Positions 4,099-54,325 of a stretch of 64,000 nt of DNA are shown here, piece after piece. The notes under the pieces are model-generated. The model was not told where the DNA came from, searched no databases, and saw only the letters and a list, made by a program, of their open reading frames with translations. The DNA comes from a bacterium (GTDB lineage Bacteria; Patescibacteriota; Minisyncoccia; Phycocordibacterales; Phycocordibacteraceae), in contig JBBCGK010000001.1 of NCBI GenBank assembly GCA_037200965.1, positions 480,001-544,000 of the forward strand, written 5' to 3'. The translations under genes were made by a program, and so were the position numbers. Each line of letters opens with the position of its first letter. Within the stretch, counting starts at the first letter, position 1.

Positions 4099-5770
4099 AT
4101 GCTTAATCACACCTTTGGAGTGATCTCGCTGGGTCGTTTCCTCACTGCTATACGTCCTGCGCGTTATGCGGTCCGCTCTGCCAATCGAACACGCTTCGGC
4201 CAAGGGCTGGTCTCGGTCCGCACCCTAGTCGTCGCTGCGTGCGTTGCAATGAGTTGGCTAGCCGCATTGCCGCAAGCCGCCATCGCGAGCAGCGTCTTGA
4301 TGAGCGTGCCAGGCGAAAGCGACGTAAACTCGGCGGGTGCCTTCACATATTCACTTCCTATTGCAGTTCCGCCCGGGACTGCCCGCATCGTACCGCGACT
4401 GTCGCTTGATTATTCCAGTCAAAGCGGCAATGGCCTCCAAGGCCTCGGCTGGTCGCTTTCCGGATTGCCGGCAATAGGAAGATGCGCGCGCACGGTGGCG
4501 CAAGACGGCGTGCATGGCAGTGTCAATTACGACGGCAGCGACAAATTCTGCTTGGAAGGCCAGCGCCTAGTCGCCCTAAGCGGCGTCTATGGCGCGAACA
4601 ATACGGAATATCGTACCGAAATAGAGAGTTTCACCAAAATTATTTCATACGGAACGGCGGGTAACGGGCCAGCCTCGTTCAAAGCGTGGACCAAGTCCGG
4701 TCAAATCCTGGAATTCGGAAACACGGCGGATTCCCGTATCGAAGCGGTCGGCAAGACAACGGTGCGCGCGTGGGCCGTCAATAAGGTTTCCGATGCCAAA
4801 GGAAACTACGTCACGGTCGAATACACCGACGACCAAACTAACGGAGAGGCGTATCCGGTTCGGATTGATTATACCGGCAATCCCAACGCAACGCCGGTGG
4901 TTATGCCGTACAATTCCGTGCAGTTCACATACACAACGCGCGCAGATATCACGATTGCCTATCAGGCCGGTTCGCAGCAGAAGATCACAAAACTTCTCAC
5001 CAATATTAAGACTTATCAAGCCGCGAATTTGGTTTCCGACTATCGCCTTGCCTATCAAGCCGGCTCATCGCTCGCACATTCGCGTCTAACGTCCATCACG
5101 TTATGTGATGGGTCGGGTACGCCGGTATGCCTTGCCCCCACGACCTTTGGCTGGCAGGGTGGCAGCGGTAGCCTGCCGACAATGACCGGGACCGCATCCA
5201 CTATCATTCCGACGCAAAGCGGTGATTTCAACGTTGACGGATTAACAGACCCCTTTGTCAAAGCCCCGTATTTTGGAACTCAGAGCGGAACGTTCGTCGC
5301 GAGCGGCATGACTATAAGCTATACCGACCCCATATCGGGATTGCCGTGGTCGGGTCTAACGGCTTTCCCCAACACAATGGTCGGGTTTGTATTGGGTGAT
5401 ACCGACGGAGACGGGTATAGCGACGTCACCGCGATGCGGGGTATCGCACATGGCGCTTATGCCAGGTTGGTGGTTACGCGCAACGACCAGCTCGGAAATC
5501 TTGGTCAGATCGGCCTGATCGATCCGCTGCATGCTGGCGCCATATTCAGCGGCGACTTCAATGGAGACGCGCGCACGGACGTTTTCGTGACGGGTGTAGC
5601 TTCTTATAACAGTACGACGTATCTGAGCCTGGGGACCGGATCGTTCACCGCCATCAACATGAGTTCGGTATATGAACCCATCACGACCGCCGATTTTGAT
5701 GGTGACGGATGCACCGATTTCTTGGGATCGACTAGTTGCACAACCTCCTTTTTACGAACGATCCTGCAGG
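4099..5770 (+). CDS. 3'-truncated Tc-toxin/Rhs-type protein N-terminus (SpvB domain plus FG-GAP/VCBS beta-propeller repeats); coding terminates inside repeat R1, so it is likely a gene fragment
   Basis: Good SD (AGGGGAGG) 8 nt before ATG 4099. The SpvB signature is PRLSLDYSSQSGNGLQGLGWSLSGLP...DKFCLEGQRLV. FG-GAP-like DxDGDG repeats are present (DTDGDGYSD, DFNGDARTD, DFDGDGCTD). There are no RHS/YD repeats or C-terminal toxin: after 5735 the frame runs into the 36-bp repeat and then into antisense, Arg-rich sequence. Confidence 0.7.
5735..5770. repeat. 36-bp direct repeat R1 (GTTGCACAACCTCCTTTTTACGAACGATCCTGCAGG), distal to cas2
   Basis: Exact 36/36 identity with the copies at 7319, 8730 and 11669, read directly from the sequence. 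Confidence 0.97.
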
Positions 5771-5784
5771 TTTCCGTTAATCTT

Positions 5785-7125
5785 CTAAGTCTCTTGTTGA
5801 GACGCAACACAGCCCCACGCCGCTTTTACCGAGTCATAGATAAAGCCTACCGTCAGAACCTTGGATATAACCGTCGTGGTTGGCAACGCCGTGCCTTCTG
5901 CCACGAACGACGCCCCCCAGGTAATCGCCCGGGCCGTACCGTCGTCTTTGATCCTGAAGATGAGCGTCTGGAAGTTCGTGGGTGTACCGGAGAGATTTGT
6001 CGTCATCGACGTGATCGCGGTCGCAAGAGCAGTAATCGTCACGGCGTCGCACCCATCGCTATTCACTGTAGGGGTTGCCGAAGAAACAATCGTCGTTATG
6101 CGTGGAGTATTTCTCTTATTTGCAAGAGTCTGTGTACCATTGTTAGTCACGACACTGTCAGCGTTTGTGCCTGCAACCGAGATTCTCAAATCTCCTGTTC
6201 CAACGGTAAGCACTCCTGAGGTGTGCGTTGCAACCCAGTTACCGTTACTAATGTTCCAGGTAAAACCAGTAGCACTAAAGAGATCGGCCCATCCAAGCGC
6301 GGTCGTCCCAAGAGCGGCAATATCATTCGTGACCGGGGAAAGAGCGGAGGAGGTAAGTTGTATCGTTCCTGTTCCGTTGATAGCCAGACCAAGCGTATTG
6401 GTTGTAGGAAGGTAGAGGCGATTACCGGTAGCAGTTGAAGAGGTAGGAGCAAAGCCAGCCGCAGTTGCCAGCGATGCCAACGTCAAAGCTCCGGCGTCGG
6501 TCAAGGTTGCATTGGTGGATGTTGCTTGTGCGCCGCGCGAAGTACCATCGGACCGAAGTATAGATTCATCTGTGGCAAAAGTGGCGGCAGCGGTGACTAC
6601 ATTACTCGGTATATCGCTTGTAAGAGCGACGGTACCCGTGGACGCCGGAAGGGTAATGGTGTTAGTTCCAGCGATTGCCGTAGGGACGAGGGCGATGGTA
6701 CCGGAAGTTGAACCCGAGAAGGTTACACCCTGGGTACCGGAAATGATGCCAGTGGTGTCAGCAATAAGCACTGCCGAGTTCTGGATCAGCTTACCAGTGG
6801 TAGTGTCGAAGCGGGCCACGGCGTTATCAGTTGCTGAAGCCGGGCCTACAACATAGGTAGCAAGGGAAGCAGTCGTAGGAATAACATAGCCGCTTTGGAG
6901 CGCTATAGCGATCGTTCCGGAAGTAGTGATCGGTACGCCGGATACCGTAAGTCCTGTCGGTACCGTAGCGTCAACGGATGTAACCGTACCTCCTCCTCCG
7001 GGGAGGTCTATAAGAAGCCTGTGCGTCGTCGGGTCTGCATATAGACGCACAGGCGTCTTGCCGTCAGCGCTTGAAGCTGCTATCAGCGTTGGAACATCGT
7101 TCTGGTCTCGGTAAGCATCAGCCAT
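5785..7125 (-). CDS. S/T/G-rich fibre-like protein (possible phage tail-fibre / adhesin-like), 446 aa
   Basis: Long low-complexity T/S/G/A-rich body with a distinct C-terminal globular-looking region (FQTLIFRIKDDGTARAITWGASFV...). It ends 14 bp before R1, and its N-terminal motif SSADGKTPVRLYADPTTH is duplicated in the upstream fragment. Confidence 0.4.
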   Translation of the reverse strand: MADAYRDQNDVPTLIAASSADGKTPVRLYADPTTHRLLIDLPGGGGTVTSVDATVPTGLTVSGVPITTSGTIAIALQSGYVIPTTASLATYVVGPASATDNAVARFDTTTGKLIQNSAVLIADTTGIISGTQGVTFSGSTSGTIALVPTAIAGTNTITLPASTGTVALTSDIPSNVVTAAATFATDESILRSDGTSRGAQATSTNATLTDAGALTLASLATAAGFAPTSSTATGNRLYLPTTNTLGLAINGTGTIQLTSSALSPVTNDIAALGTTALGWADLFSATGFTWNISNGNWVATHTSGVLTVGTGDLRISVAGTNADSVVTNNGTQTLANKRNTPRITTIVSSATPTVNSDGCDAVTITALATAITSMTTNLSGTPTNFQTLIFRIKDDGTARAITWGASFVAEGTALPTTTVISKVLTVGFIYDSVKAAWGCVASQQET

Positions 7126-7127
7126 AA

Positions 7128-7325
7128 TCAGGTACTTTGTACGAGTAATTCCCCGGCACTATTGGCGTAGAGCACCACAGGCGTCTTGCCGTCAGCGCTT
7201 GAGACAGCCATGAGTGCAGGAACAAAGTTTGCGTCCCGCAGATCGTCTACCGGCCCAAAGTCCGACCCGGTAGTGTCGTCGTCCGCCATAAGCGCATGTG
7301 TTGAAGGGTCAGCAACGAGTTGCAC
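7128..7325 (-). pseudogene. out-of-frame duplicated N-terminal fragment of the fibre-like gene; its GTG start lies inside repeat R2
   Basis: GTG at 7325..7323 sits 2 nt after the AAGGAGG of the repeat (minus sense). The encoded ...ADPSTHALMADDDTT...SSADGKTPVVLYAN repeats the N-terminal motif of 5785..7125. A stop at 7130..7128 then puts it in a different frame from the ATG at 7125. Confidence 0.4.
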
Positions 7326-7354
7326 AACCTCCTTTTTACGAACGATCCTGCAGG
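7319..7354. repeat. 36-bp direct repeat R2
   Basis: Exact copy of the 36-mer. Confidence 0.97.
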
Positions 7355-7451
7355 AGTATGAGTACTGATACCGTCCAATCTGCCATTGAATATGCGCGAC
7401 ACTCGCCGTCGTGACGACGTTGAGTTAAGTCAATGGCGATTTATGTTACTG

Positions 7452-7973
7452 TCACCGGACCGGCACGAACCCTTCGGGAAGAAACTGCGTCGGGTCCTTC
7501 CACGGTTCAATAGCAACTGCTTTGGGGTATTTGCTTATCATGTAAGCATCGGTGCAATACACCAAACTTTCGGGATCATCGTCCGAAGGCTCAAGGCCTG
7601 AAAATTCAACCATCACAGATTTCTGGTTGGTAATTTTTCCAAAGGTGTCAATGAACCGCTTGATTTTGTCAAACTCACGCACAAAATCGTCGGGCTCAAA
7701 TAGATAGGAATACACTACTACTGTATTCTCGCCGACGATCCGTTCGGAACCGTCCTCATTTTTCACGCGGAAACGCCCAGCGGCGAGCGGCAATTGGGTT
7801 ACACCGCCATTGATCCGCACCATAATTTCCATGGCGCTATCGACCCATTTGTCAAAATTTTCAACAGGCTTCTGATCGCGATCTTGGTTAGGCAAATAAA
7901 CTGCAAACCGTTGTACCGATTCAGATGTATCGGCACCTAGCGCGGTCTTGAGGTCAAAATCTACGAGCGCCAT
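7452..7973 (-). CDS. hypothetical protein (173 aa), upstream partner of the PRTase-domain gene
   Basis: Clean ORF with balanced composition and no recognisable motif; it is co-oriented with, and 86 bp downstream of, the PRTase gene. Confidence 0.45.
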   Translation of the reverse strand: MALVDFDLKTALGADTSESVQRFAVYLPNQDRDQKPVENFDKWVDSAMEIMVRINGGVTQLPLAAGRFRVKNEDGSERIVGENTVVVYSYLFEPDDFVREFDKIKRFIDTFGKITNQKSVMVEFSGLEPSDDDPESLVYCTDAYMISKYPKAVAIEPWKDPTQFLPEGFVPVR

Positions 7974-8059
7974 GATCGCTTCCTATTAGCCATCAATGAA
8001 AAGGCCCCATAGCCGGGGCCTTAAAGTAGGCAAAATGCCAAATTGCAACGCTGATGCCG

Positions 8060-8716
8060 CTACCGCGGTCTTGAAGGTCTCCGAATTCCGAGCACCGTTT
8101 TAGGGTCCCGCTTGATCTTTAGAAACCGTCCAAATCCCGAACGAGCGTCTTCAGGTTTCTCCGCTTGTTGGGAAGCTGAACGAATCGCTGTCACTATCTC
8201 GTTAGCAGCTTCTGATATGGGCGGCAAATTTTGCCGGTTATAGTCGCCTGGCGGGATTCCCGCGTGCTTCTTTTTCATATGATTTTCTCCTGTTTCTTCA
8301 CAGGGTTGCGACCCATCGGTCTCAGCCCCGTGTTGATCGGGAGAAAGCCCTTCAAGAATCGGGCCGCGTACGTCGGTTTCCCAGGTTAAGGCTTCGACGC
8401 GAATATCCTGGCCACGGTCCGTCCTTATGCTTTCGCGATGGGGACCATACCCACATAGTACCACAGCGGCATGCGTAGTCGCGCCCGAAATCTCGTGGAC
8501 TATATCCGCAGCAGCGCCAATACCAGCGCCCGTTACTATCAAGTCATAGACCATCAAGATGCGATCACCGGAAAGCGGTTTGTCTGCCGTTATTGCTACG
8601 CCCTTCGCCCAACGCGTCTCGCGATAGATGCAGGCGGGCAATCCGGTTTCGGCGACGAGGGACGAGAGCATCGAAATCGCGCCGACCGGCCCCATCTCTT
8701 TTTCGATAAAGCACAA
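8060..8716 (-). CDS. phosphoribosyltransferase (PRTase type I) domain protein; start at TTG 8716 or ATG 8695
   Basis: PRPP-binding-loop-like DRILMVYDLIVTGAGIGAAADIV. Such PRTase-domain proteins occur as effectors in some anti-phage systems; that point is from general knowledge, not from a search. Confidence 0.55.
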   Translation of the reverse strand: MCFIEKEMGPVGAISMLSSLVAETGLPACIYRETRWAKGVAITADKPLSGDRILMVYDLIVTGAGIGAAADIVHEISGATTHAAVVLCGYGPHRESIRTDRGQDIRVEALTWETDVRGPILEGLSPDQHGAETDGSQPCEETGENHMKKKHAGIPPGDYNRQNLPPISEAANEIVTAIRSASQQAEKPEDARSGFGRFLKIKRDPKTVLGIRRPSRPR

Positions 8717-8729
8717 TCGCGTAATGCCG

Positions 8730-8765
8730 GTTGCACAACCTCCTTTTTACGAACGATCCTGCAGG
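8730..8765. repeat. 36-bp direct repeat R3
   Basis: Exact copy of the 36-mer. Confidence 0.97.
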
Positions 8766-9363
8766 AAACCATGAGAGAACCCGAGTTGATCTCGGTGGCC
8801 ACGATCTTCAAAGGCGACAACTCGTTAAATTCCTCATAGTTCAGGTCAGCGAACCGAATTCGATCAGGCACTCCATCGTGATCACGACCATTTGCGGCAT
8901 ATAATTCCCGCATACGTTCTCGAAGAACTGTGTTGATGAATTCACGAATGGGCGTTGTGGTGAAAAAGCCTAAGTGCCGCCATATGCGCAGCATTCCAAA
9001 CGTAACTAGGGGAGCTGTTAAAAAAGACAATAATACACCCCCCAACGCCGTAGCGGACAATGCCCATCGAAGTCCCTGGCGGAGGCGAACAAATCTACGC
9101 CAATCATCAGCCCCCAATAACGTTACGGGGGTCAAGTTATGTAGGCTGAGAATATTTTGATCCCTAATGTCGGGATTCATCAAAGTCGAAGCACTGTATC
9201 CCGCCGCGACTAGCGTTGCCACGATCGCGCCAGCTGACGCCCCGGCTACACCTACGAAGGCGAGCCCATTCTTCGCGGCACCCTCCAAAGCACCAATATG
9301 CGCTATGCCCTTAGCACCGCCACCTTCGAATATGCCAAAGGCTGGCCTCTTAGCGTCCATCAC
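8766..9363 (-). CDS. patatin-like phospholipase, 3'-truncated at repeat R3 (lacks the region that would carry the catalytic Asp)
   Basis: GGGAKG oxyanion motif and GASAG (GxSxG) serine motif near the N-terminus. The ORF reads straight into the repeat (…SGSLMVS|CRIVRKKEVVQ) before any DG[A/G] Asp motif and then continues as Arg-rich antisense of the PRTase gene. Confidence 0.6.
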
Positions 9364-9496
9364 TGTATGTATCCTTTCGCAAATCAGGTCGGGGCCTGCA
9401 CAAACGACAGAACATCGGACAGGCTGGTGAAATAATGAGATACCAGCCTTCGCACATTGCTGTTCCGCATACAGATACAGCAGTTGCTAGTTCAAA

Positions 9497-11068
9497 TCAG
9501 TTCAGTTGCTCCCGCACCAACGAAAGATCGTTGAACAACGTTCTCGTAAGATTCGGGATTTTTTCCAGTTTGTCTGCTTGTATTAACTTCGCCATAAAAC
9601 GAATGCTTCCCTCCACTCGCTCGTCATAGAATATTTCGTGCAGAAACTTCCGCCCCTGCCGCAAATCCGTAGCATCAAACAGAAATTCCAGCTTGGCTTC
9701 GTTATCGACCATAGCAACTGCACGCCAAAAGAATCGAGGAAAATTCGCTGTCAGGAGGCTCTTGCGGACTATCTTGCTTAGGGAGGAGCGCGAAACAATC
9801 TCGCGTTTCAGATCGCTTGGGCCATTCAAAAATATGTCCCACTCGAAACGAGCCATATCACTATTGCTCGATAATTTTTTAAGCATCTCTAAAATATGAT
9901 CAAATGCCAGGATAGCATCGTACACGTCGTCAAATCGGACGCGAATTTTGCTATAGAGCGGCACGAGACACAAATCCGCGCGAGCACGGGTTATCTTCGT
10001 CCCACGCTTTCGAGACCAAGTTGTCGTTATGATGTTAGATGGGCCGCTCAGCTTGATCTCAGAGTATGGGCCGATGCCGTCGTCATGCGCATACAGTTTG
10101 GTTATGCGCGTCGCCCGTAGAAGAAAACCCGTGCGAGGTTCGGGTACTATGGGACCAGTTGTGGGCCCAAGGCCGCTGAGTGCGACCGCGTGAAATGCTC
10201 GTTTGCTTTTCTTGGAGCGTTCTAAGTTGAAGTCAAAACTCAGAATGATCGGAATATTGCCCCTCAAGAATGCATTTGCTGCGGCTTGGATATTGGCTCG
10301 CTCGGGCGTCATAAACAAATCCGCTTCGAGACCGACATTGCGCAAAACGCCAGCCATTTGATCGATATCCAAGCCGTCGTTCGGGAGAGCTAGGCCAGCT
10401 GTTGGCAGCGAAGCAAACGCTCGTTTGGTTATTTCAATAGGTGATAAGATTGGATTGTCATACAAATTCGCCGTGCCATGCAGTGTAGTCCACAGAGCGC
10501 TGGTAGCGCATGCGCCAACCTCTCGGTCTTGTTCTTGAAAAGGCAGCGCACGTACAGGCAGATCTATGCCGAAAAGATTTGGTACATATCCGCGCTCAGT
10601 GAGGAAGCGACTCGATGGATTACTCCCAACCGGCGCCAAACACGTTCGCCCAATGATGGTTTCGGGAAGAGGTTTGACAACTACAAAGCCGTGATATCCC
10701 AAGACGTCGAACCTACACTCACCGCGGCCCGAAACGAAAAGCGCTTCGACCATATCTTTATCGAACGGTTGCCGAAAAAAGTGAATTCGTGAACATTCTT
10801 TCGGATAGTTCGCGTGGCATCTCGCGTAGTATCCTGTATGATCTTCGGCGAAATGCTTGTCGATGTAGTCGCGCTCAAATACAAGAGTTTCGATTTTCGC
10901 GGCTTCACAGTAACGAGCTAGAAAAATGACCTGGGGCTTTTGTGCAATTTGCTCCAGTCTAGGTTTAAATGCTCCGGCAACAAAAAGCGCTACCAAGTTC
11001 TCTCGATTGTACTTGAGTACTTGGTAGCGCTCGCCCATGTGATCTAACTGAATATCCGCGTACGTCAC
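9497..11068 (-). CDS. hypothetical 523-aa protein with a possible papain-fold / peptidase-C39-like Cys-His domain
   Basis: Candidate catalytic Cys in EVGACATSALWTTLHG and downstream His/Asp in AFHAVALSGLG / YAHDDGIGPY. This is pattern recognition only. Its start overlaps the end of 11065..11529 by 4 nt. Confidence 0.3.
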   Translation of the reverse strand: MTYADIQLDHMGERYQVLKYNRENLVALFVAGAFKPRLEQIAQKPQVIFLARYCEAAKIETLVFERDYIDKHFAEDHTGYYARCHANYPKECSRIHFFRQPFDKDMVEALFVSGRGECRFDVLGYHGFVVVKPLPETIIGRTCLAPVGSNPSSRFLTERGYVPNLFGIDLPVRALPFQEQDREVGACATSALWTTLHGTANLYDNPILSPIEITKRAFASLPTAGLALPNDGLDIDQMAGVLRNVGLEADLFMTPERANIQAAANAFLRGNIPIILSFDFNLERSKKSKRAFHAVALSGLGPTTGPIVPEPRTGFLLRATRITKLYAHDDGIGPYSEIKLSGPSNIITTTWSRKRGTKITRARADLCLVPLYSKIRVRFDDVYDAILAFDHILEMLKKLSSNSDMARFEWDIFLNGPSDLKREIVSRSSLSKIVRKSLLTANFPRFFWRAVAMVDNEAKLEFLFDATDLRQGRKFLHEIFYDERVEGSIRFMAKLIQADKLEKIPNLTRTLFNDLSLVREQLN

Positions 11069-11529
11069 ACTGTGAACGGGATACGCCGACGGTCAGGAGA
11101 AATCTGGTTGGCTTGTTCTCGACTTTCAATTGCCTTGAGCATTGGCGAAAGACGCTTAGCGACTTGCGCAGTAAGATCAGTTCTGGAGGCCGTCGCCTTG
11201 GACTTGGGCCGTGCAGAACTCTTCGTCTTTTTGTGACGCATAGCGCAACCTCCAATTTCGGTGAGCAGGATGTTGCCCTCAGTTCCAGCCCGGCGGGTAT
11301 AAACTCCAACACGGGGATCAAAATCAAGCTCATGGACTTGACTTCCTGGAACGGGGCCGCCTAGGGCTCCCCTGTAACGAATCAGCCCTGTTCTTAACGT
11401 ACCACGAGCGCCTTCGTATCCCCAATATTTTGTATGTGGATAATCCACCAACACAAGTTCTTTGAATGGTGAGGCTGGCCGTTGCCTTTCCTCAGTGGCG
11501 TCGCCGTCCGTTGACCCAATCGCCTGCAT
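11065..11529 (-). CDS. hypothetical protein (154 aa), first gene of the R4-R3 segment, translationally coupled to the 523-aa gene
   Basis: ORF overlapping the downstream gene by 4 nt (ATGA-type overlap); no recognisable motif. Confidence 0.45.
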   Translation of the reverse strand: MQAIGSTDGDATEERQRPASPFKELVLVDYPHTKYWGYEGARGTLRTGLIRYRGALGGPVPGSQVHELDFDPRVGVYTRRAGTEGNILLTEIGGCAMRHKKTKSSARPKSKATASRTDLTAQVAKRLSPMLKAIESREQANQISPDRRRIPFTV

Positions 11530-11668
11530 AACAATTTAATGCCTTCCTTCTGGCAGCAGACCACTAGGAGCGGCAGACGGCCGTTCATTATCAGCGTGGA
11601 TCATTGGCTGGACCGAGCCCCAATCGGTGACTGATTCGTACGGCTAAAGACCGCTCGGGTCAACTAAG

Positions 11669-11704
11669 GTTGCACAACCTCCTTTTTACGAACGATCCTG
11701 CAGG
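11669..11704. repeat. 36-bp direct repeat R4, 32 bp from the cas2 stop codon
   Basis: Exact copy of the 36-mer; the cas2 stop codon is at 11737..11739. Confidence 0.97.
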
Positions 11705-11736
11705 AGTCCGTGTATATTGAGCGGTAACGCGAATTA

Positions 11737-12033
11737 CTAGACAATCTCAAAGGACTTGATCTTATAATACTCCCCGATAACGGCATCGGCAGTTGAATTA
11801 AGTGCGCATGATTTGCAGGAAGAAAATAGATGCAGCCGATCCCGTTTTCCCGTGAATAGCGATCGCATCTTCATTTCAAATTCCCGGCGCTCCTTAAAGG
11901 AAAGGCGTCCGACGTAGAGAGTCTGTTGAAGTGCGGATAAACCATAGTCCTTTGATAACTTTTCCGCGCGGATCTGGCGCTGCCGATTGGCGGTTCTCCA
12001 GGCGACTATTGCAAGGAAGCATGGATCATTCAT
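11737..12033 (-). CDS. cas2: CRISPR-associated endoribonuclease Cas2
   Basis: A 98-aa ORF overlapping cas1 by 4 nt. It has the Cas2-like pattern ...LYVGRLSFKERRE... (compare E. coli Cas2 GVYVGDVSAKIRE) and a hydrophobic N-terminal strand. Confidence 0.7.
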   Translation of the reverse strand: MNDPCFLAIVAWRTANRQRQIRAEKLSKDYGLSALQQTLYVGRLSFKERREFEMKMRSLFTGKRDRLHLFSSCKSCALNSTADAVIGEYYKIKSFEIV

Positions 12034-13085
12034 GGTGCCGCATATTCAAACGGCACATATAAGGGCGCTTTTTCAAGAAATACCCGGCTTAAGAGCTCGC
12101 TCTGTTCCGTAATGGTATTGCGGAGCGTACGGCGTTTCCCGTGATGGAGGACTTTCGACTCGAGGCGCTTAAGCACCGCCTCAACCACCTTGCTCTTTCC
12201 TTGCGCAGAAAGCCGATATTCGATCTTGCTTACCTGCTCGAAATCGCCGCGCTTGCCAAGTTCCTGAGAAATGAAGAGCGGCATGACTGCAGCGTCGACG
12301 ACGGGGACCCGAAACTCTTCGACCAGATCGAGGACGAGCGCGGGCTTGCCGTAACGCTCGGAATGATAAAGTCCGAGATACGGGTCGAGACCGATATAAA
12401 GGCACGCCCGCTCGACTTCGTTATAGAGGATGCCGTATCCGTAATTAAGAGCGCTGTTGAACTTGTCCCTGCCTTGCGGTATCCGGCCCGGGAACTTAAA
12501 AAGCGATTTCATGCCTTGCCAATAGCGCTCTGCAATGGATCCTTCAAGGCCAAGCAGTTCCTCGTTCACCCGGTTGCTCGGAAGCAGCTTCGCTATCGAC
12601 TCAAAAACCGCCTCCGCCTGCATCCGCTCCTTCGCATTCTCCGCACCGTATCGGTCGGCAAGATGGCGCATAAAGCGGATTTGGTTGCGGCACTTACCGA
12701 CAACGAAGGTACGCGCAAGTTCGAAGGATTTAGCCGGATCGGAGGAAGTCGTAAGCTGTGCGCGGCGCAATGTCGCGAGCCCCTTCGGGTCGCTTGAGAA
12801 AATGCGCCCGACGGGTTTCCCAAATGCGCCGAGATAGACGATATCGACTTCGTGCTCGAGCGCGAGTTGCACCGCATGCATGGAAATGGAGGACGGACGG
12901 AGTATGACGATCTTAGCAAGCCGCCGGACCGGATACTCCTTCTTAACCCGGAGAAGCTTTACCGCAGTTCCCCGCTTGCGACGCCTGCCACCCCCAAGCG
13001 GCTTTCGCGGAACCGGGAGACTGACCGTAATACGCTCGCCCGTCGCGCCGATGAAGCTGCCATAGGTATCTATCAGCAAATCCAT
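12030..13085 (-). CDS. cas1: CRISPR-associated integrase Cas1
   Basis: Hallmark NALNYGYGILYNEVERACLYIGLDPYLGLYHSERYGKPALVLDLVEEFRVPVVD (Cas1 catalytic region with conserved H/E/D), 351 aa. Confidence 0.85.
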   Translation of the reverse strand: MDLLIDTYGSFIGATGERITVSLPVPRKPLGGGRRRKRGTAVKLLRVKKEYPVRRLAKIVILRPSSISMHAVQLALEHEVDIVYLGAFGKPVGRIFSSDPKGLATLRRAQLTTSSDPAKSFELARTFVVGKCRNQIRFMRHLADRYGAENAKERMQAEAVFESIAKLLPSNRVNEELLGLEGSIAERYWQGMKSLFKFPGRIPQGRDKFNSALNYGYGILYNEVERACLYIGLDPYLGLYHSERYGKPALVLDLVEEFRVPVVDAAVMPLFISQELGKRGDFEQVSKIEYRLSAQGKSKVVEAVLKRLESKVLHHGKRRTLRNTITEQSELLSRVFLEKAPLYVPFEYAAP

Positions 13086-13140
13086 GGGGCGTATATACTA
13101 CCGCCTTGACCTAGTGTCAAGGATCACGCAACGCCCTCGC

Positions 13141-20713: not shown

Positions 20714-24085
<3,372 letters not shown>

Positions 24086-32106: not shown

Positions 32107-33000
32107 ATGCGTATGAACCCCTCCGATATCACCTCTCTCACACGCGCGCTTGAACTTTCGATATCGACGGCTCCTCCCCAAAAGCAGCATGCGGTTACGG
32201 CATCGGTCGCCTATTCCCGAAGCGGAGCTTCGTATCCGGCCGGAACCGTATCGTCGCAGACGCACATCCTCGACCTCCCTTCCGAACTCGCCGCGCTCGT
32301 CCGCGCTACGCATCACGGGGACTATCCGATCACCGAGGTGCACACGATGGCAGTCGATCCTGCGACGCCCGTCTCGCCGCTTGCGCTCAAAGCCCTCGCC
32401 GACCACACCGCGCGCACGGGTACCGCCATACGCTACGCGGTATTCGATATGGACGGAAACATTCTCTTCTCGGTCGACGACGCGCGCAATGCTCTCCCCT
32501 TTTACCGGATGCCCGAGCACTTGCTCTCAGCCGCAACAGATCCTACGCGGATCGTTGCGCTTCCCCAGGCGCGCGAAGTCGCAGGAGAGAGCATCGAGTC
32601 CCAGCTCCGCCGCTTGTCGCTTGCCGGAACCACGCTCAATTTCCCGACGCGAGACGGCGCGTCGGGCTATGGTGCCGCCGTGCGCACCAAGGACGGCACC
32701 TTCTACTACGGCGGCCAGTACTCGAGCTTCGATAAACGCCTTGGCATACATGCGGAAGTCGCCGTGCTCGTAAACGCGCTTATGAGCGGCGCAAGCGACA
32801 TCACGCACCTGGGCATCATCTCTTCGAAAGCAACCGATACGCCCTGTAACCCTTGCGGTTGCTGCCGCCAGTTCATCAGCGAATTAGCGCGGGCCCGCAC
32901 GTTCGAGCCGCAAATATGGTGTTTCGCCTCCGCCACCGAACAGGCCAACTCTTATGCCATCGACGAGTTGCTTCCCTCCGTATGGACAAATCGCCGATGA
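32107..33000 (+). CDS. cytidine/deoxycytidylate-deaminase-fold protein
   Basis: Zinc-binding HAEVAVL … PCNPCGCCRQF in the C-terminal half; 297 aa. Confidence 0.5.
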   Translation: MRMNPSDITSLTRALELSISTAPPQKQHAVTASVAYSRSGASYPAGTVSSQTHILDLPSELAALVRATHHGDYPITEVHTMAVDPATPVSPLALKALADHTARTGTAIRYAVFDMDGNILFSVDDARNALPFYRMPEHLLSAATDPTRIVALPQAREVAGESIESQLRRLSLAGTTLNFPTRDGASGYGAAVRTKDGTFYYGGQYSSFDKRLGIHAEVAVLVNALMSGASDITHLGIISSKATDTPCNPCGCCRQFISELARARTFEPQIWCFASATEQANSYAIDELLPSVWTNRR

Positions 33001-35396
33001 CAAGCGCAAGACCGCAATTCCCCATCGTCGACGCGCTGCTTTTCGCGCCGCCCGAGTCGGCGAACGGCCGGATCGGCATCTGCACGAATACGAGCGCGCC
33101 GGGCCAGATCTATAACGACGTCGAGGAGAACAACCGCTTGGCGGTATCGATACTCGGGCCCCTGATCGTAAGCCGCGACGGGACGGAGCGCATGATCCTC
33201 AACTCGCTCGCGCACCCCACCCTTTCCTATCTCATACTTTTTTCCGAGGAGTCGCTTACGTTTTCGCCAAGCACCAACTTGCTGCTTGCGCTCATGCACG
33301 GCCTCGACGAGAGCCGCAGCGGCAACTACATCAGGGACGGACAGGCCGTATCCGCGCACTATCCCAATCTCTCAAAAGACATCCTCCGTCTCTTCGGGGA
33401 AACCATCGTCGTGCTCCCGCTCTATATGTCGCAGAACAAGGAGAGCGCCGCGGTCGTTGCCGAGTATCTTGCCTGGCTTGGTCCGCGCATTCCGGAAGAT
33501 GTCTCGTCGTTCCTTAGGGAAGCGAACGCGAAGGAGAAAAAGTATTTCGACGCGCTTAACAAGCTTATCGGGCTCCTGAGAAAGATTCCGGAAAAGGAAA
33601 AGCCTCCGGTCATGCTCGACCCGAAGGACTTCCAGCATCTTCAGCCTCCCACGGTCACGATCCCGAACGAGCGGATACGCGCTACGGTGCCGTTTCGCGT
33701 AACGCTCGAAGGCGGGCTGCTCCGGCTTGACCTACGGCTTGGCGAACGGACGTACTTCATCCGCGACGAAAACGATTTCCGCATCGAGTATTCGCTGATG
33801 AAGTACCTCGGCGAGAGAAAGTCGGAGTTTACGCCGCTTGAGCAGTTACTTATCGGCGCCGAACTGAACCGGGCGAACGTGGAACGCACGAGCGGCCTCG
33901 CCGCGGAACCGTTCACGGAACCGAACGACATACGGGGAACCGAGGAAATCCTGCTCGAACCGAACGTGGCGCTCATCCCCGACCAGGAGTACTACTACAA
34001 AATCGGCCTTAAGGGCGAGCAGGTTTCGGTGATGTGCATGGCGTTCGATATCTGCGAGGAAGTGTTCGAGCTCCGCTCGAAAGAAGCGGGCGGCATATTC
34101 AAGTGGCTGAGCGAAAAAGACCGGTTCCAGAAATACGAAATGGACATGCTCCATCGAATGGATGTCGGCGGCCAGATCGGACGTGCCGCGATCGCGGCGC
34201 GCTTCGGTTATTCGTTCATCCAGGACTTCTCGAGCATTTTCAAGCTCAATACCGAAACGCTTCCGCTTATCCTCGCCGAAGGCGACTCGTTCCTCGATGT
34301 ACACCGGTCGCTTCTTCTCAAGACCTATACCGAAGGCATTACGGAGCCGCACGGCGACGAACGGAAAGGGCTCTCCCGCACCGCCGTCGTACTTGCCGTC
34401 TACCGGGACGGCGCGACCGCGCTCGCGCAGATGCCGGGTATTTATAAGCAAGGCGACCAGTCGACGGAAGAGATGCGCGACGCGTACGCGAAGCAGCTGC
34501 TCCGGCTTGATCACGACGGCGACTATAGCTACGGGGAGCGCACGCGCGTACATTTCGGTTTCGACCAGCTGGAAACCGCGAAAAAAGCGCTCGCGGACAA
34601 CCCGGGACGCGCGACCATCGTGCAGCGCTTTGATCCGACCGAGGATATGGGCAGGTCGCGTAACCCGGATACGGGCCGGACCGAATACACGCACGATCCC
34701 TGCCTTACGCACGACATCTTTTTCGTCCAAAACGGAAAGCTGCATTCGTTCCACGTCGCCCGGGCCCATAACCTTCCGAACGCGTACCCGGAGAACATTT
34801 TCGGTCTTCATGATGCGTATGTCCGCCCCGTCCGCGACAGCCTTGCCCTCGCCTCCGGAGACCTGTACATGCTGTCGAGTCGGGGAAACATCCTCCTCCT
34901 TACCGAGGAGCAGCGCGTGCGGAAGATCATCGCGGAACCGTCGAAACCGATGGGCGCGGTCGATAGCGTAAGCGGCCCGTTTCTTATCGGACCGAACGTG
35001 CGTTCCCCGGCCGTTCCCCAAGGAGGAATTTCTTATACGACTATCAAGCTCGAAGAAAACACTTCCTGCTCCCATCCTTTCCTCGATCGCTTCGCTTCGT
35101 TTGAAGGCATCGATACCATCGAACGGGCTATTTCCTATCTCGAAACTAAGGGCGGGGCGCACAACAACCCCATCCTCACCACATACCAGGCCGGAAAGTC
35201 GGACCCGCAGGAGGACCATCTTGTCTTCTTCCAGGCGAACGTGTTCGGAAAGCGCCTGCAGGCGACCGCCGTATTCGCGAACCACGCGCCGGAACCCGTG
35301 GACCGTGCGCTTATTTTCGCGCTTGCCACGCGCTTCGCAGGCCGGCTCAAGGTCGGGCTCGGAAATGCCGCCATTTTCTATGTCAACGCAGGCTGA
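32997..35396 (+). CDS. large (799 aa) protein with a C-terminal thymidylate-synthase / dCMP-hydroxymethylase-fold domain
   Basis: ATG at 32997 overlaps the upstream stop (ATGA). The C-terminus has DQLETAKKALADNPGRATIVQRFDPTE (compare TS DQ…NPDSRRIIVSAWNP) and HDPCLTHDIFFVQNGKLHSFHVARAHNLPNAYPENIFGLHDAY (compare PCH…NG.LS…QRS.D…PFNI). The N-terminal 500 aa are unknown. Confidence 0.5.
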   Translation: MTSARPQFPIVDALLFAPPESANGRIGICTNTSAPGQIYNDVEENNRLAVSILGPLIVSRDGTERMILNSLAHPTLSYLILFSEESLTFSPSTNLLLALMHGLDESRSGNYIRDGQAVSAHYPNLSKDILRLFGETIVVLPLYMSQNKESAAVVAEYLAWLGPRIPEDVSSFLREANAKEKKYFDALNKLIGLLRKIPEKEKPPVMLDPKDFQHLQPPTVTIPNERIRATVPFRVTLEGGLLRLDLRLGERTYFIRDENDFRIEYSLMKYLGERKSEFTPLEQLLIGAELNRANVERTSGLAAEPFTEPNDIRGTEEILLEPNVALIPDQEYYYKIGLKGEQVSVMCMAFDICEEVFELRSKEAGGIFKWLSEKDRFQKYEMDMLHRMDVGGQIGRAAIAARFGYSFIQDFSSIFKLNTETLPLILAEGDSFLDVHRSLLLKTYTEGITEPHGDERKGLSRTAVVLAVYRDGATALAQMPGIYKQGDQSTEEMRDAYAKQLLRLDHDGDYSYGERTRVHFGFDQLETAKKALADNPGRATIVQRFDPTEDMGRSRNPDTGRTEYTHDPCLTHDIFFVQNGKLHSFHVARAHNLPNAYPENIFGLHDAYVRPVRDSLALASGDLYMLSSRGNILLLTEEQRVRKIIAEPSKPMGAVDSVSGPFLIGPNVRSPAVPQGGISYTTIKLEENTSCSHPFLDRFASFEGIDTIERAISYLETKGGAHNNPILTTYQAGKSDPQEDHLVFFQANVFGKRLQATAVFANHAPEPVDRALIFALATRFAGRLKVGLGNAAIFYVNAG

Positions 35397-36057
35397 CCGA
35401 TTCAAAGACGTGCGCGTCGTCGGATTCGATCTCGACCAGACGCTGTATCCGAAATCGCCGGATATCGATACGATGATCCAAAAGTACCTGTATGAAAAGA
35501 TAGCCGAGCACCGCGGCATCGCCCTTATCGACGCAGAGCTGCTGTTTAAAGAGCTGTACCGGGACGGTTCGGGACTGTCGGGGCGGCAGACCCTCGAATC
35601 GCTCGGGCTTTCCGAGGCGTCGAACCTGGTGCAAGAGGCCCTCGAGCGCGCCGACATCGCCGCGGTGCTGCGTCCGGATCAGACAGTGAACCGATTCCTT
35701 GCCGAGCTGCGCGTTTCCTGTGATGGAATGGATCTGATTACCGGCTCGAACCTGTCTCAAACACAAAAGAAGCTCGCGGCTCTCGGGCTTTCTCCCGAAA
35801 GCTTCACCCACTGCCTTACCGAAGACCAGGCGAGCAAATCGGACGGTGCGGCATACCGGCTGTGGCTTTCCCTCTATCCGCACCTTCCGCCGCGGCACTT
35901 TCTCTATATCGGGGACCGGGTGCAAAGCGACCACGTGGTCCCGGCGGCGCTTGGCATACGCACCGCACTCGTTAATGTGCGAGCTGTCGACGCGCAAATC
36001 AGCGTCCCCCAGCTTCCGAGTTTGCTTGATCTGCGGGGCCTGCTCCCGGCACGATAG
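35380..36057 (+). CDS. HAD-superfamily hydrolase/phosphatase
   Basis: Motif I VVGFDLDQTLY immediately after the start; about 225 aa. Confidence 0.6.
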   Translation: MSTQADRFKDVRVVGFDLDQTLYPKSPDIDTMIQKYLYEKIAEHRGIALIDAELLFKELYRDGSGLSGRQTLESLGLSEASNLVQEALERADIAAVLRPDQTVNRFLAELRVSCDGMDLITGSNLSQTQKKLAALGLSPESFTHCLTEDQASKSDGAAYRLWLSLYPHLPPRHFLYIGDRVQSDHVVPAALGIRTALVNVRAVDAQISVPQLPSLLDLRGLLPAR

Positions 36058-38327: not shown

Positions 38328-39371
38328 TCAAGCAGCTGTACGCGTCCAGTACCTCTGGCACTCCTCGGCCGTTAATGAGGAGAGTATATACCGGAGCGGC
38401 GGCACCTGTCCCAGGGACTCGTGCGGACGCCGGGCGTTGTACCAGAGCAGCCAGTCGACCAGCTTCAGGTTGAATGCCGCGACGTCGTCCCGCAGGAGCG
38501 GCCGATTGAGCATGATGCAGTCCTCCGAGATCGTCCGGTTGAACCGCTCGACGAACGCGTTCATCTTCGGGCTGCGGGGAAACGTATTGAAGTGGGTGAG
38601 GCCGAGGGCGCGGCACCCCGCCTCGAAGTTCTTGGCGAACTCCGGGCCGTTGTCGGTCTGGAGCTCCGTGATGTCGAAGGGGCACACCGCGATGACGCGC
38701 GCGAGGAAATCGGCGGCGGACGCGGAGGAGTGGACGGTATACGCGCCGGCGAAGGCGAACTTCTTCTCGACATCGATGGCGGTCAGGACGTACCGCTTCA
38801 CGCCGTCGATGAAGCGGACGACGGTGTCGAGCTCCATGCCCCGCTTGTGCCGCCTGCGCAGCTTCGTGCGCTTCGATACGGGCTTCTCCCGATACGTGCC
38901 GCTTCGCGCATAGTATGAGAGCGGCTTGTGCGGGAGCAGCAGCCCTCTCCTCTTGAGGTCCGCGACGACCCTCCCGACATACGATTCGGATACCCGGTAC
39001 CCGTCCTCCCGCAGCAGGGCTGCGAGCTTCGCCTTGCCGAGCCTCGGATGCTCCGCGCGCTCCTTCAGGATGAACGTCTCGACCTCGGGGAGGACGATGC
39101 GTCTCCTCCGATTCTTCGGTGCCGTCGACTTGGGATCGAGCGCGTCGAGTCTCCCGTGCGCGCGGTCGAGCTTCGCCTGCCAACGGAAGAGCGTGCGGCG
39201 AGAGACGCTGAAGGCGTCCCTGGCCGCACGCTCCCCGTGCGTTTTCCAGAAGTCCAGCACCTTGACCCGATGCCGCACCTCGTCGTTGTTCCTCATATGC
39301 AGGAAGCGTATGCTCCGCTCGCGCATATACAACCAGCCCTCGGTATCCTTCAGTATGTTGAATTGACGCAT
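38328..39371 (-). CDS. IS481-family transposase (HTH + rve/DDE integrase core)
   Basis: …ELQTDNGPEF… DDE core; 347 aa. Confidence 0.75.
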   Translation of the reverse strand: MRQFNILKDTEGWLYMRERSIRFLHMRNNDEVRHRVKVLDFWKTHGERAARDAFSVSRRTLFRWQAKLDRAHGRLDALDPKSTAPKNRRRRIVLPEVETFILKERAEHPRLGKAKLAALLREDGYRVSESYVGRVVADLKRRGLLLPHKPLSYYARSGTYREKPVSKRTKLRRRHKRGMELDTVVRFIDGVKRYVLTAIDVEKKFAFAGAYTVHSSASAADFLARVIAVCPFDITELQTDNGPEFAKNFEAGCRALGLTHFNTFPRSPKMNAFVERFNRTISEDCIMLNRPLLRDDVAAFNLKLVDWLLWYNARRPHESLGQVPPLRYILSSLTAEECQRYWTRTAA

Positions 39372-52394: not shown

Positions 52395-52399
52395 AACTG

Positions 52400-52471
52400 G
52401 GCGGCTAGAGAGAATCGAACTCTCGACGCGGGTACCACAAACCCGAGTTTTACCACTAAACTATAGCCGCC
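52400..52471 (-). tRNA. tRNA-His (GTG) with genome-encoded G-1 and 8-bp acceptor stem
   Basis: Manual fold: G-1 + GCGGCTA / TAGCCGC + C73, anticodon arm CGGGT-TTGTGGT-ACCCG, T-arm GAGAG-TTCGATT-CTCTC. Confidence 0.8.
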
Positions 52472-52956
52472 ATGAATTGCTCTCGCGGCTCTTCGTAATG
52501 ATGTACGAGGAAGTGGCAGTTATGGCACAGCCACGCGAGATTACTCAACTTATTGTTTTTCCGGTTCTTGTCAATGTGGTGCACAGCAAGCACCCGGATA
52601 TCTGTAGTTTTGCACAAACGGCATAATTTAGGAACCTTGTGACGACTGAGTACTGAACGGTAGGAATGCAGCCCTGTTGTAAAGTTTGAATGCTTGTTGC
52701 CGACATAAAGTTGATTGCGCCAGCGTGTTTGGCAACTTTTGCCACAGAAAAATAGTTTGCTCTTAGACCCTTTGAGTTGCTTTGGTTTCTTGTAGGAATC
52801 TTTCCCGCAGATAAAACATGGCATTTCCTTTCCTTTGCGCATTCCTGCGTACTGACAGGTCGGAGAGCAGTACTTGCCATAACCTTTTTTTATCCAATAA
52901 GGTTTTGCGTTGAAGTTTTTACCGCAGAATGTGCAAGTGACGAGTGCCATTCTCAT
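52456..52956 (-). CDS. HNH endonuclease-domain protein
   Basis: Multiple CxxC pairs and HHIDKNRKNNKLSNLAWLCHNCH; the 3' end overlaps the tRNA-His gene by ~16 nt. Confidence 0.55.
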   Translation of the reverse strand: MRMALVTCTFCGKNFNAKPYWIKKGYGKYCSPTCQYAGMRKGKEMPCFICGKDSYKKPKQLKGSKSKLFFCGKSCQTRWRNQLYVGNKHSNFTTGLHSYRSVLSRHKVPKLCRLCKTTDIRVLAVHHIDKNRKNNKLSNLAWLCHNCHFLVHHYEEPREQFMAAIV

Positions 52957-53010
52957 ATTTTATCGACCAAAACTGAAAGGTAAACAGGAGGAATTGTGGA
53001 TATTATAAAT

Positions 53011-53580: not shown

Positions 53581-53606
53581 AGAGTAAGTTATGGCATTAT
53601 ATCAGT

Positions 53607-54200: not shown

Positions 54201-54216
54201 GGATACGAACAAAATG

Positions 54217-54244: not shown

Positions 54245-54325
54245 TTAGTGCCCAGGTTGACCTCTTTTCCGAACTGCCTCAAATCTACAAGGCAGTACAG
54301 GAAAGCATGGTCGGAATAGAGCGTC

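Follow-up and report, generated by a model that had tools for sequence, protein, structure and literature searches.

Kilobase-sized inserts between CRISPR-type repeats downstream of cas1-cas2 in a Patescibacteriota genome

The cas1-cas2 locus and its inserts

The window analysed here (the whole stretch of 64,000 nucleotides) contains overlapping genes for Cas1 and Cas2, followed by four copies of a 36-nt repeat with long inserts between them. The features of the locus, beginning upstream of cas1, are:

13092..13120, minus strand: putative promoter upstream of cas1, TTGACA (13120-13115), 17 nt, TATATA (13097-13092), found by eye
12030..13085, minus strand: cas1, 351 aa, Pfam PF01867 (Cas_Cas1), E=1e-63
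11737..12033, minus strand: cas2, 98 aa, start overlapping the cas1 stop (ATGA)
11705..11736, minus strand: leader, 32 nt from the cas2 stop to repeat 1, ending in GACT (family consensus GGCT)
11669..11704, minus strand: repeat 1, leader-proximal, CCTGCAGGATCGTTCGTAAAAAGGAGGTTGTGCAAC on the cas strand, exact-match scan
8766..11668, minus strand: insert 1, 2903 nt, GC 0.51, between repeats 1 and 2
8730..8765, minus strand: repeat 2, exact-match scan
7355..8729, minus strand: insert 2, 1375 nt, GC 0.52, between repeats 2 and 3
7319..7354, minus strand: repeat 3, exact-match scan
5771..7318, minus strand: insert 3, 1548 nt, GC 0.54, between repeats 3 and 4
5735..5770, minus strand: repeat 4, distal, exact-match scan
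4099..5734, plus strand: SpvB/FG-GAP gene, convergent, 3' part missing, Pfam SpvB 2e-17

PADLOC assigned the cas1 product to Cas1/Cas1b (3e-68). The G-x-EG, H and DLxEEFR motifs are retained in an alignment with the solved Synechocystis Cas1 7CR6 (E=2e-31), and E181, H241 and E256 are invariant across 32 relatives. Judged by its sequence, the window Cas1 groups with CRISPR Cas1b-type proteins. The cas2 product was assigned to Cas2b (PADLOC, 9e-7), its Pfam score of 18 bits staying below the threshold of 23.8. Over its whole length it can be aligned with the bona fide Cas2 of a DPANN Cas14b locus (L029), and the family profile matches PDB Cas2 chains at 8e-6. In contrast to canonical CRISPR systems, Cas2 lacks the usual N-terminal Asp motif throughout the family, the 'YDI' of beta1 with its catalytic Asp being changed to W-x-T. 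The element in front of cas1 may act as promoter. It contains an inverted repeat (TTGAC-N5-GTCAA), similar sequences precede cas1 at the loci L002, L009 and L128, and it was not flagged by a consensus scanner. No terminator is predicted after cas2 in the window.

A preliminary description had reported four identical, co-oriented 36-bp repeats, the first of them 32 bp past the cas2 stop codon, and our re-scan returned the same coordinates. The repeat reads GTTGCACAACCTCCTTTTTACGAACGATCCTGCAGG on the plus strand, and the start-to-start distances are 1584, 1411 and 2939 nt. There is no further copy in the window on either strand with up to 3 mismatches, a threshold at which 100 shuffles gave 0 matches expected by chance; with up to 16 mismatches only background-level matches appeared. 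The termini of the repeat are inverted (TGCAC/GTGCA).

In the three intervals, every ORF of appreciable size lies on the cas strand. Insert 1 carries a complete 58-aa ORF (11065-11241) and a 523-aa ORF (9497-11068), a pair of small ORF and ~520-aa ORF that recurs in other phyla in defence-island-like surroundings. These are followed by a patatin-like gene that is severed by repeat 2; its remaining 5' part (9363 to 8767) covers only positions 2-118 of the 191 of the Patatin profile. Insert 2 carries one ORF without Pfam match, open from the junction down to 8060, and a complete 173-aa ORF (7452-7973); in the former, a motif resembling a PRPP-binding loop was noticed by eye. Insert 3 begins with the 3' end of a tail-fibre-like ORF (7318-7128), open from the junction, followed by a complete tail-fibre-like ORF of 446 aa (5785-7125). 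The tail-fibre-like match (phrog_3030, 1e-22) is accompanied by tblastn matches in 207 phage records and by 379 relatives in IMG/VR viral contigs. Beyond the array, the last FG-GAP repeat of the SpvB/FG-GAP gene stops at profile position 19 of 37 (residues 529-542), and the reading frame continues directly into and through repeat 4.

Recurrence in the Cas1 lineage and origin of the repeat

Our survey took in Cas1 relatives of at least 54% identity with enough flanking sequence. In all of these, cas1-cas2 is followed by a short conserved leader with GGCT at its end and by a homologous repeat of 36-37 nt, located 32-110 nt after cas2 (distance from the cas2 tblastn match), and in none of them does an effector or cas4 adjoin cas1-cas2. 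At the leader end, 23-25 of 26 loci have G, C and T at positions -3, -2 and -1, respectively, and 19 of 26 have G at position -4. The family consensus of the repeat is CCTGCA-N8-TCG-N-A-N-AA-N-G-N5-TGTGCAAC.

Arrays of the lineage comprise 1-8 repeats, with a single repeat at many loci; the closed 876-kb long-read chromosome L014 has 8 and L002 has 5. The 41 distinct spacers measure 140-4242 nt, never 30-40 nt, with a sharp mode at 1.2-1.5 kb (16/41). A degenerate-pattern scan of JGI metagenomes yielded 114 loci, 0 of them with conventional spacing, and no short spacers are left at any of about 140 loci. The same design accompanies 84 distinct 37-nt repeat variants from many environments. The kb-scale intervals of the preliminary description are real, and the layout is found throughout the Cas1 lineage.

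The inserts of the lineage look like random fragments of varied origin rather than cassettes. Their cargo includes phage, defence-island and housekeeping genes; among the relatives, a dnaX gene is severed about 10 codons from its start at a repeat junction, and in three spacers (L016 sp1, L096 sp3, L014 sp6) a single frame is open from end to end. Orientation over the loci is mixed (~22 sense vs 13 antisense; L002 has 4/4 antisense), different arrays have no spacer in common, and GC varies from spacer to spacer within an array and is unlike that of the flanks. The spacer-end motif is weak, the last base being A in 24/41. In the L096 array, a repeat SNP occurs in two copies at one end and is absent from the other two. 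This fits copying of the first repeat, provided that the SNP end faces the leader (the contig is without cas genes).

The nearest outgroup Cas1s (33-37% identity) adjoin conventional arrays with 37-nt repeats and a period of 72-78 bp; one of these loci is cas1-cas2-cas4-cas12f (Cas14b/V-F). Repeats of the DPANN outgroup (ATTGCAG...GGAATGCAAC) match the window repeat in termini and orientation. On the strength of this homology, with orientation and length (~37 nt) in agreement, the window 36-mer is to be regarded as a genuine CRISPR-type repeat tied to cas1-cas2, as had been proposed. The nearest sequence relatives found are the type V-F (Cas14b/Cas12f) loci of DPANN archaea (L026, L029), with a Cas1 34-37% identical, a Cas2 aligned over its full length and a 37-nt repeat with similar ends (xxTGCAG...TGCAAC) that follows the cas genes in the same orientation. 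However, these loci have cas4, cas12f and conventional arrays (73-75-bp period), whereas the window lineage has none of them.

Gain and loss at repeat junctions

Whole units of insert plus repeat distinguish the population variants. One population contains two array forms with flanks 98-100% identical. Variant A reads cas2-leader-R-trailer (R, repeat), variant B cas2-leader-R-[~1670 nt]-R-[1345 nt]-R-trailer, the trailer being as in variant A; the variant-B array was obtained by joining two contigs via a 68-nt exact overlap. Divergence begins exactly at the last base of the repeat. Three independent cas deletions were also detected. In L090 a tRNA-promoter stretch is fused to R, in L119/L140 cas1 codons 1 to ~70 and in L151/L167 codons 1 to ~113 are fused to R. 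The endpoint of all three deletions is the first repeat base, at the leader-repeat junction, which is where the first Cas1-Cas2 transesterification takes place in established systems.

Proposed mechanism and alternative explanations

We consider it likely that the array arose by ruler-less Cas1-Cas2 integration of long DNA with duplication of the repeat. A CRISPR adaptation module without effector (promoter, cas1, cas2, ~32-nt leader, 36-nt repeat) would insert long dsDNA fragments of about 0.14-4.2 kb, presumably at the leader-proximal repeat, and duplicate the repeat at every insertion. The chemistry would be that of ordinary spacer acquisition minus the length ruler and minus Cas4 trimming, whose loss is the probable cause of the long inserts. 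The window array would record three insertion events. The captured DNA would be arbitrary (phage, defence islands, chromosomal genes of other cells), ending wherever the fragment ended. Cas1-Cas2 is the presumed catalyst, although a recombinase encoded elsewhere in these genomes may take this role. Among the origins listed in the preliminary description, long-insert integration is favoured by the population gain variants and the junction-exact losses. The lack of effector, cas4 and cas6 genes within the 64-kb window counts against this explanation, as does the sharp length mode at 1.2-1.5 kb, because a simple ruler-less model predicts none. To our knowledge, no Cas1-Cas2 accepts kb-long substrates. 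Short arrays (up to 8 repeats) and many single-repeat loci imply that the activity must be rare.

The locus resembles a canonical CRISPR adaptation module (Cas1b/I-B-like, V-F-associated branch) in its overlapping cas1-cas2 operon, the intact Cas1 catalytic motifs, the short conserved leader abutting repeat 1, the 36-37-nt repeats with inverted termini that are identical within the array, and the units of insert plus repeat between leader and trailer, strains differing at the leader end. It differs by inserts of 140-4242 nt, widely varied within one array, instead of ~30-40 nt, by only 1-8 repeats and by the lack of a cas4, effector or crRNA-processing gene nearby. Casposons (Cas1-solo) are the closest functional precedent for a Cas1 handling long DNA, since there, too, a Cas1-family integrase joins kb-long DNA to a target whose sequence is duplicated. 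A PolB gene, terminal inverted repeats and target-site duplications of 14-15 bp characterise casposons, which are without Cas2 and integrate their own DNA rather than arbitrary DNA. Here Cas2 accompanies Cas1, the target that is duplicated is a CRISPR repeat of 36-37 nt, and the inserts are heterogeneous.

Alternatively, the ~1.4-kb promoter-cas1-cas2-leader(-repeat) unit might be a minimal casposon-like selfish element moving between sites and genomes, the kb inserts being by-products of an integrase acting on any available DNA ends. The unit occurs in unrelated contexts among close relatives (window, L002, L003, L009), is 99.86% identical over 1467 nt between different contexts of one MAG (L016 and L022), often lies directly downstream of a tRNA gene and is precisely what is missing from L090. 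Its GC is unlike the host flanks, at 1403-1450 nt it is as long as the modal insert, and an 18-nt duplication flanks the 1450-nt unit in L003. No such duplication was seen at other loci, however, and 24 loci showed neither terminal inverted repeats nor a copy of the repeat upstream. This explanation is compatible with ruler-less integration, to which it adds a claim of selection and mobility, and we regard it as unlikely. The preliminary description suggested a gene-cassette platform analogous to an integron. In such a platform, circular cassettes with one repeat copy each would enter and leave the repeat by site-specific recombination, through Cas1-Cas2 or some other recombinase, and the cas promoter would drive their expression. 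Integrons likewise combine a fixed platform beside an integrase gene with an array whose kb-sized inserts alternate with a recombination site and may be read from a promoter; inserts of 0.4-1.5 kb resemble their cassettes, the insert ORFs of the window all run in the direction of the cas promoter, and complete genes are present in some inserts (e.g. the 58-aa and 523-aa ORFs of insert 1, the 173-aa and the 446-aa ORF). An integron-like cassette nature of the inserts is not supported, genes being severed at arbitrary points. Circular permutation does not account for inserts 1 and 2, because the missing gene part is absent from the other end of the same insert. The end-to-end open frames, the mixed orientation and the lack of common spacers also argue against it, no tyrosine recombinase (integron integrase) adjoins the array, and the identical repeats are not attI/attC-like, with no covariation pointing to a hairpin. 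An integron-like system is therefore quite improbable.

That the repeats are dispersed REP- or MITE-like elements or protein-binding sites within native DNA, or that mobile elements entered a once-conventional array, is very improbable, and the junction data already contradict it. Repeats do occur singly and away from cas genes (e.g. L103, L107, L124 group), and REP-like palindromes are plentiful in one lineage genome. But the sequences flanking a repeat do not add up to one gene (at repeat 2 the patatin-like gene meets an unrelated ORF), the loci retain no short spacers, the place of the first repeat, after cas2 and a conserved leader, is fixed, and the population variants differ by entire units. 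There is hardly any chance that the array is an assembly chimera or a cloning or engineering artefact, as had been considered. Short-read contigs often end at the repeat, which contains an SbfI/PstI site (CCTGCAGG); in the family CCTGCA may be followed by C, T or G, which makes the SbfI site an incidental variant of this start. A second, independent assembly (GCA_015655515.1, JAATEX010000139.1) matches the window over 21 kb with 99.976% identity, including the same four repeats, and closed or near-closed long-read MAGs show the same design.

As to the role of the stored DNA, we tentatively and only slightly favour a capture of DNA or genes that are now and then expressed from the cas promoter. 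A mobile cas1-cas2 module acting selfishly or neutrally is nearly as probable, and a memory that is read by some means other than a known effector somewhat less so. We found no description of a kb-insert Cas1-Cas2 array in the literature. The layout shared by the whole Cas1 lineage suggests a CRISPR integrase that has dispensed with its spacer-length ruler.

The array and its cas genes

The exact 36-mer GTTGCACAACCTCCTTTTTACGAACGATCCTGCAGG (plus strand) occurs in exactly four copies in the window, starting at 5735, 7319, 8730 and 11669, which are the positions of the four identical direct repeats in the preliminary description. Further copies with up to three mismatches were found on neither strand of the window nor in shuffled sequence, and a 16-mismatch scan of the window for degenerate extra repeats yielded matches at background level only. 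The kilobase-scale intervals described earlier were recovered as well, with inserts of 2903, 1375 and 1548 nt. Numbered from cas2 outward, the locus reads as follows.

Features of the locus in the window
Upstream of cas1, minus strand: promoter-like element TTGACA-17-TATATA, recognised by eye and not flagged by the consensus scanner
13085-12030, minus strand: cas1, Pfam Cas_Cas1 (PF01867), 1e-63
12033-11737, minus strand: cas2, overlapping cas1 by ATGA
Between cas2 and repeat 1, minus strand: leader of 32 nt
After the leader, minus strand: repeat 1, insert of 2903 nt, repeat 2, insert of 1375 nt, repeat 3, insert of 1548 nt, repeat 4

With 215 bits against a curated cut-off of 22.3 for PF01867, the first protein belongs to the Cas1 family. 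Its catalytic Glu/His/Glu(Asp) motifs can be aligned with 7CR6 and do not vary among 32 relatives or across the lineage. Cas2 scored 18 bits with Pfam PF09827, under the cut-off of 23.8, and was called Cas2b by PADLOC (9e-7). It aligns over its full length with the Cas2 of a Cas14b locus, and a profile of its family, one bona fide Cas2 included, matches PDB Cas2 chains at 8e-6. The N-terminal catalytic Asp motif is missing from this protein. There are no other cas genes in the 64-kb window, and neither an effector module nor crRNA processing genes were detected there or beside any relative examined.

The array lies among housekeeping genes encoding MetRS, an AI-2E transporter, GlyRS, IleRS, ArgRS and SHMT. 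The possibility of an assembly artefact, raised earlier, is countered by a second assembly (GCA_015655515.1), which is 99.976% identical and shows an array of identical layout.

Some further features of the window were recorded. In the IleRS (20714-24085, minus strand, 1123 aa), the catalytic domain is interrupted by a whole histidine-phosphatase domain at residues 502-674 (Pfam His_Phos_1, 7e-31). Two genes for rve-family (DDE) transposases with HTH domains, at 38328-39371 (minus) and 45480-46523 (plus), are IS elements within the otherwise housekeeping region. Eight tRNA genes (His, Leu x2, Val, Arg x3, Ser) lie within 10 kb at 52399-62286, and two ORFs without a Pfam family overlap on opposite strands, at 32853-35396 (plus, 847 aa) and 33846-35657 (minus, 603 aa).

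Content of the inserts

In the window, genes are truncated where they meet a repeat. Insert 1 ends in a patatin-like ORF that reaches repeat 2 after 199 codons and covers only positions 2-118 of the 191 in the Pfam profile; past this repeat lies an unrelated ORF whose frame is open from the junction. Insert 3 begins within a tail-fibre-like gene, and past repeat 4 lies a convergent SpvB/FG-GAP gene, broken midway through an FG-GAP repeat. Where an insert holds a cut gene, the other half of that gene does not lie at its far end. This speaks against reading the inserts as gene cassettes.

Insert 3 is phage-like (phrog_3030), with tblastn matches in 207 phage records and 379 relatives in IMG/VR. 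It also contains a 74-nt imperfect direct repeat (7037-7110 and 7165-7238, 74% identity), because the end of one tail-fibre-like ORF resembles the start of the next. In insert 1, a small ORF and a 523-aa ORF form a complete gene pair, and the 523-aa ORF has no relatives in IMG/VR. Such a pair is a conserved two-gene unit, in which a small ORF (58-76 aa) is followed by a protein of about 505-541 aa without Pfam family (window 9497-11241, minus strand; L282-L286, loci in other assemblies). It was found in Pseudomonas, Phycisphaerae, Armatimonadota and others, in neighbourhoods resembling defence islands with NACHT, PIN-TPR-GreABC, Mrr and RelA/SpoT genes, and is possibly an uncharacterised defence or toxin module. 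PHROGs and PADLOC gave little information on most insert ORFs. The GC content of the inserts is 0.51-0.54 vs 0.57-0.60 in the flanks. No paralogues of the spacers exist elsewhere in the 64 kb, so that they do not come from the nearby genome.

Across the lineage, about 26 of about 33 spacers of at least 300 nt have an open frame of at least 100 aa entering a junction (counted by eye), and three spacers consist of one open frame from end to end. A search of 54 insert ORFs against Pfam and PHROGs returned mixed functions: three SAM methyltransferases, two DKNYY proteins, a 5-hmdU DNA kinase, RadC, an integrase, a major tail protein, NDK, spermidine synthase, PfkB, a CoiA nuclease, a protein kinase and dnaX, the last broken about 10 codons from its start. 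GC content varies among spacers within one array, and about 22 ORFs are in sense to cas vs about 13 in antisense orientation. Cut frames, mixed annotation, varying GC content and mixed orientation together indicate that the inserts are arbitrary fragments from several sources.

Recurrence, growth and loss across the Cas1 lineage

Hundreds of proteins are related to the Cas1 of the window, and most of them carry the label Patescibacteria, Paceibacterota, Saccharibacteria or Parcubacteria. All relatives of at least 54% identity with sufficient sequence possess cas1-cas2, neither effector nor cas4, and a homologous repeat of 36-37 nt located 32-110 nt after cas2, a gap counted from the end of the tblastn match to cas2, which sometimes falls short of the stop codon. 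No match to the exact 36-mer exists among 185,579 species-representative genomes; because the repeat differs even between close relatives, the search required a degenerate pattern. A scan of JGI metagenomes with such a pattern gave 114 loci, none of them with conventional spacing. The 41 distinct spacers measure 140-4242 nt.

Spacer lengths at related loci
L002: 1332, 1379, 1340 and 2377 nt; Cas1 85% identical (88% over the truncated gene call), 138-kb contig, differing genomic context
L014: 213, 2526, 144, 579, 4007, 386 and 140 nt; closed 876-kb chromosome, long reads
L016: 673, 2279 and 1228 nt
L189: 1491, 2416 and 1670 nt

On the cas strand the repeat has the consensus CCTGCA-N8-TCG-N-A-N-AA-N-G-N5-TGTGCAAC, with inverted termini TGCAC/GTGCA. 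In 23-25 of 26 loci, GGCT forms the end of the leader. Over 84 distinct repeats, pairing is confined to the invariant terminal TGCAC/GTGCA. An RNA hairpin was considered and rejected: an inner stem (12-16/25-29) was weakly above shuffles (30/2000), with unconvincing mutual information and no supporting covariation. At gathering threshold Rfam reported tRNAs alone and no CRISPR-DR family. Spacer ends show no PAM-like motif apart from a preference for A in the final position (24 of 41).

The next-nearest Cas1 proteins (33-37% identity), from DPANN archaea, Chloroflexi and Firmicutes, all adjoin ordinary arrays with 37-nt repeats and a period of 72-78 bp, some with more than 100 repeats. The DPANN repeats (ATTGCAG...GGAATGCAAC) agree with the lineage repeat in length, termini and orientation. 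This clear likeness to conventional outgroup repeats supports the lineage repeat being a true CRISPR repeat, as had been proposed. One of the outgroup loci, from DPANN, is organised as cas1-cas2-cas4-cas12f (Cas14b), whereas the lineage with kilobase inserts has neither cas4 nor effector; the switch to such inserts coincides with the loss of both at the base of the clade.

Gain of inserts is visible within one population, in which ruvB-cas1-cas2-leader-repeat is 99.95-100% identical over contigs from several samples. Precisely at the repeat's last base, the sequences split into two forms. Variant A reads leader-R-trailer (R, repeat), and variant B reads leader-R-[~1670 nt]-R-[1345 nt]-R followed by the same trailer. 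The other side was recovered by look-up of the first trailer gene, and the first insert of variant B was joined from two contigs via a 68-nt exact overlap. Comparison of related loci for gain or loss had been suggested before; here, whole insert-plus-repeat units separate the two variants. Indirectly, this bears the mark of acquisition accompanied by repeat duplication, putatively catalysed by Cas1-Cas2. In the array L096, a repeat SNP is common to the two repeats at one end and absent from the other two; this contig is without cas genes, and its leader-facing end was deduced from repeat orientation.

Three independent deletions share one type of endpoint, the repeat's first base. They fuse to it the promoter (L090, whose two flanks are both syntenic with L014), cas1 codons 1 to about 70 (L119/L140, syntenic with L019) and cas1 codons 1 to about 113 (L151/L167), respectively. 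In characterised systems, the first Cas1-Cas2 transesterification takes place at the leader-repeat junction.

Many solitary repeats without nearby cas genes were observed, too. Seven of these (L124, L136, L092, L089, L201, L191, L115) have no cas genes for several kb and share a conserved stretch of about 50 nt before the repeat, with a small hairpin CTCCGCAGAAAAGCGGAG; L191 has an additional 1.2-kb block upstream. At L102, L143, L148 and L187 only the last 28 cas2 codons, leader and repeat are left, with tandem repeats of about 165 nt upstream, apparently a decayed module.

The length distribution is not even: 16 of 41 spacers measure 1183-1548 nt, where about 3 are expected if lengths were log-uniform. 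This modal size is that of the promoter-cas1-cas2-leader unit itself (1403-1450 nt). The shortest spacers (140-213 nt) are near the bending persistence length of DNA. In close relatives the unit sits in unrelated contexts, often adjoining tRNA genes, and one MAG holds two copies of 99.86% identity. The unit may itself be mobile. In 24 loci, no repeat copy (R0) was found ahead of cas1, and no terminal inverted repeats. At locus L003, the 18-nt sequence AGGGAGTATGAGCGGGAT is present just upstream of cas1 (9969-9986) and directly after the single repeat (11419-11436), so that its copies bracket a 1450-nt cas1-cas2-leader-repeat unit in the manner of a target duplication. In L016 and L022 (MAG MFD05512.bin.1.167) a dispersed REP-like palindrome, TTGTCCACGACGGGGACCCGTCGTGGACAA, occurs in about 12 copies per 21 kb, one of which delimits the duplicated cas1-cas2 unit on its left.

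Relation to known systems and meaning

CRISPR arrays are operationally defined by near-identical direct repeats of about 23-55 bp, by short spacers of similar length, about 21-72 bp, and by a conserved leader that adjoins the first repeat beside cas1-cas2. The four identical 36-nt copies and the 32-nt leader abutting the first repeat beside cas1-cas2 conform to this type, whereas the spacers (1375-2903 nt in the window, 140-4242 nt in the lineage) do not. A complete CRISPR-Cas system would in addition comprise effector and crRNA processing, which are absent from the 64-kb window and from the neighbourhoods of the relatives examined. Casposons combine a Cas1 without Cas2 with a family-B DNA polymerase, terminal inverted repeats and a 14-15-bp TSD; here, in contrast, Cas2 is present, PolB was not found in the window and 24 loci are without terminal inverted repeats. 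Integrons rely on the tyrosine recombinase IntI next to attI, on attC sites of conserved structure and variable sequence, and on cassettes of complete ORFs. No integrase lies beside the array of the window, and the identical repeats, the missing hairpin covariation and the ORFs broken at junctions set the locus apart from integrons. Of the integron-like platform proposed in the preliminary description, the link of Cas1-Cas2 to CRISPR repeats with kilobase inserts stands, and the gene cassettes give way to captured fragments.

The locus behaves most like spacer acquisition without a ruler, the Cas1-Cas2 control of spacer length. Leader-proximal insertion with repeat duplication is indicated indirectly at the population level, with Cas1-Cas2 as the putative catalyst. 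Spacer-length control is regarded as built into Cas1-Cas2, the ruler being two Cas1 dimers on a Cas2 dimer, and trimming is done by Cas4 or host nucleases. In a more far-reaching reading, this Cas1-Cas2 lineage would write kilobase segments taken from foreign genomes into the chromosomes of ultra-small bacterial symbionts. The unit may be captured like other inserts and so spread as a self-propagating 'spacer', which, if true, would make it a present-day counterpart to the proposed transition from casposons to CRISPR. Another possibility is that the fragments provide effector-independent, homology-based protection. The full proposal, in which a CRISPR-derived lineage turned to free-standing, length-unrestricted DNA capture with either a self-propagating unit or protective fragments, is speculative and we regard it as rather unlikely.

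In the full-text literature searched there was no earlier description of Cas1-Cas2 arrays with kilobase spacers, reports beyond its coverage being possible; the spacers in the Vampirococcus paper measure 26-46 bp. If true, a widespread, conserved lineage integrating 0.14-4 kb would mean that the ruler can be lost. It would also supply an enzyme that inserts gene-sized DNA site-specifically and independently of homology at a 37-bp site, useful for DNA recording and genome writing, and would render the long-discussed link between casposons and CRISPR adaptation experimentally accessible. Patescibacteria, which live attached to other cells, are mostly without CRISPR-Cas systems; for them, ruler-free capture would, if true, constitute an unrecognised route of foreign-DNA acquisition.
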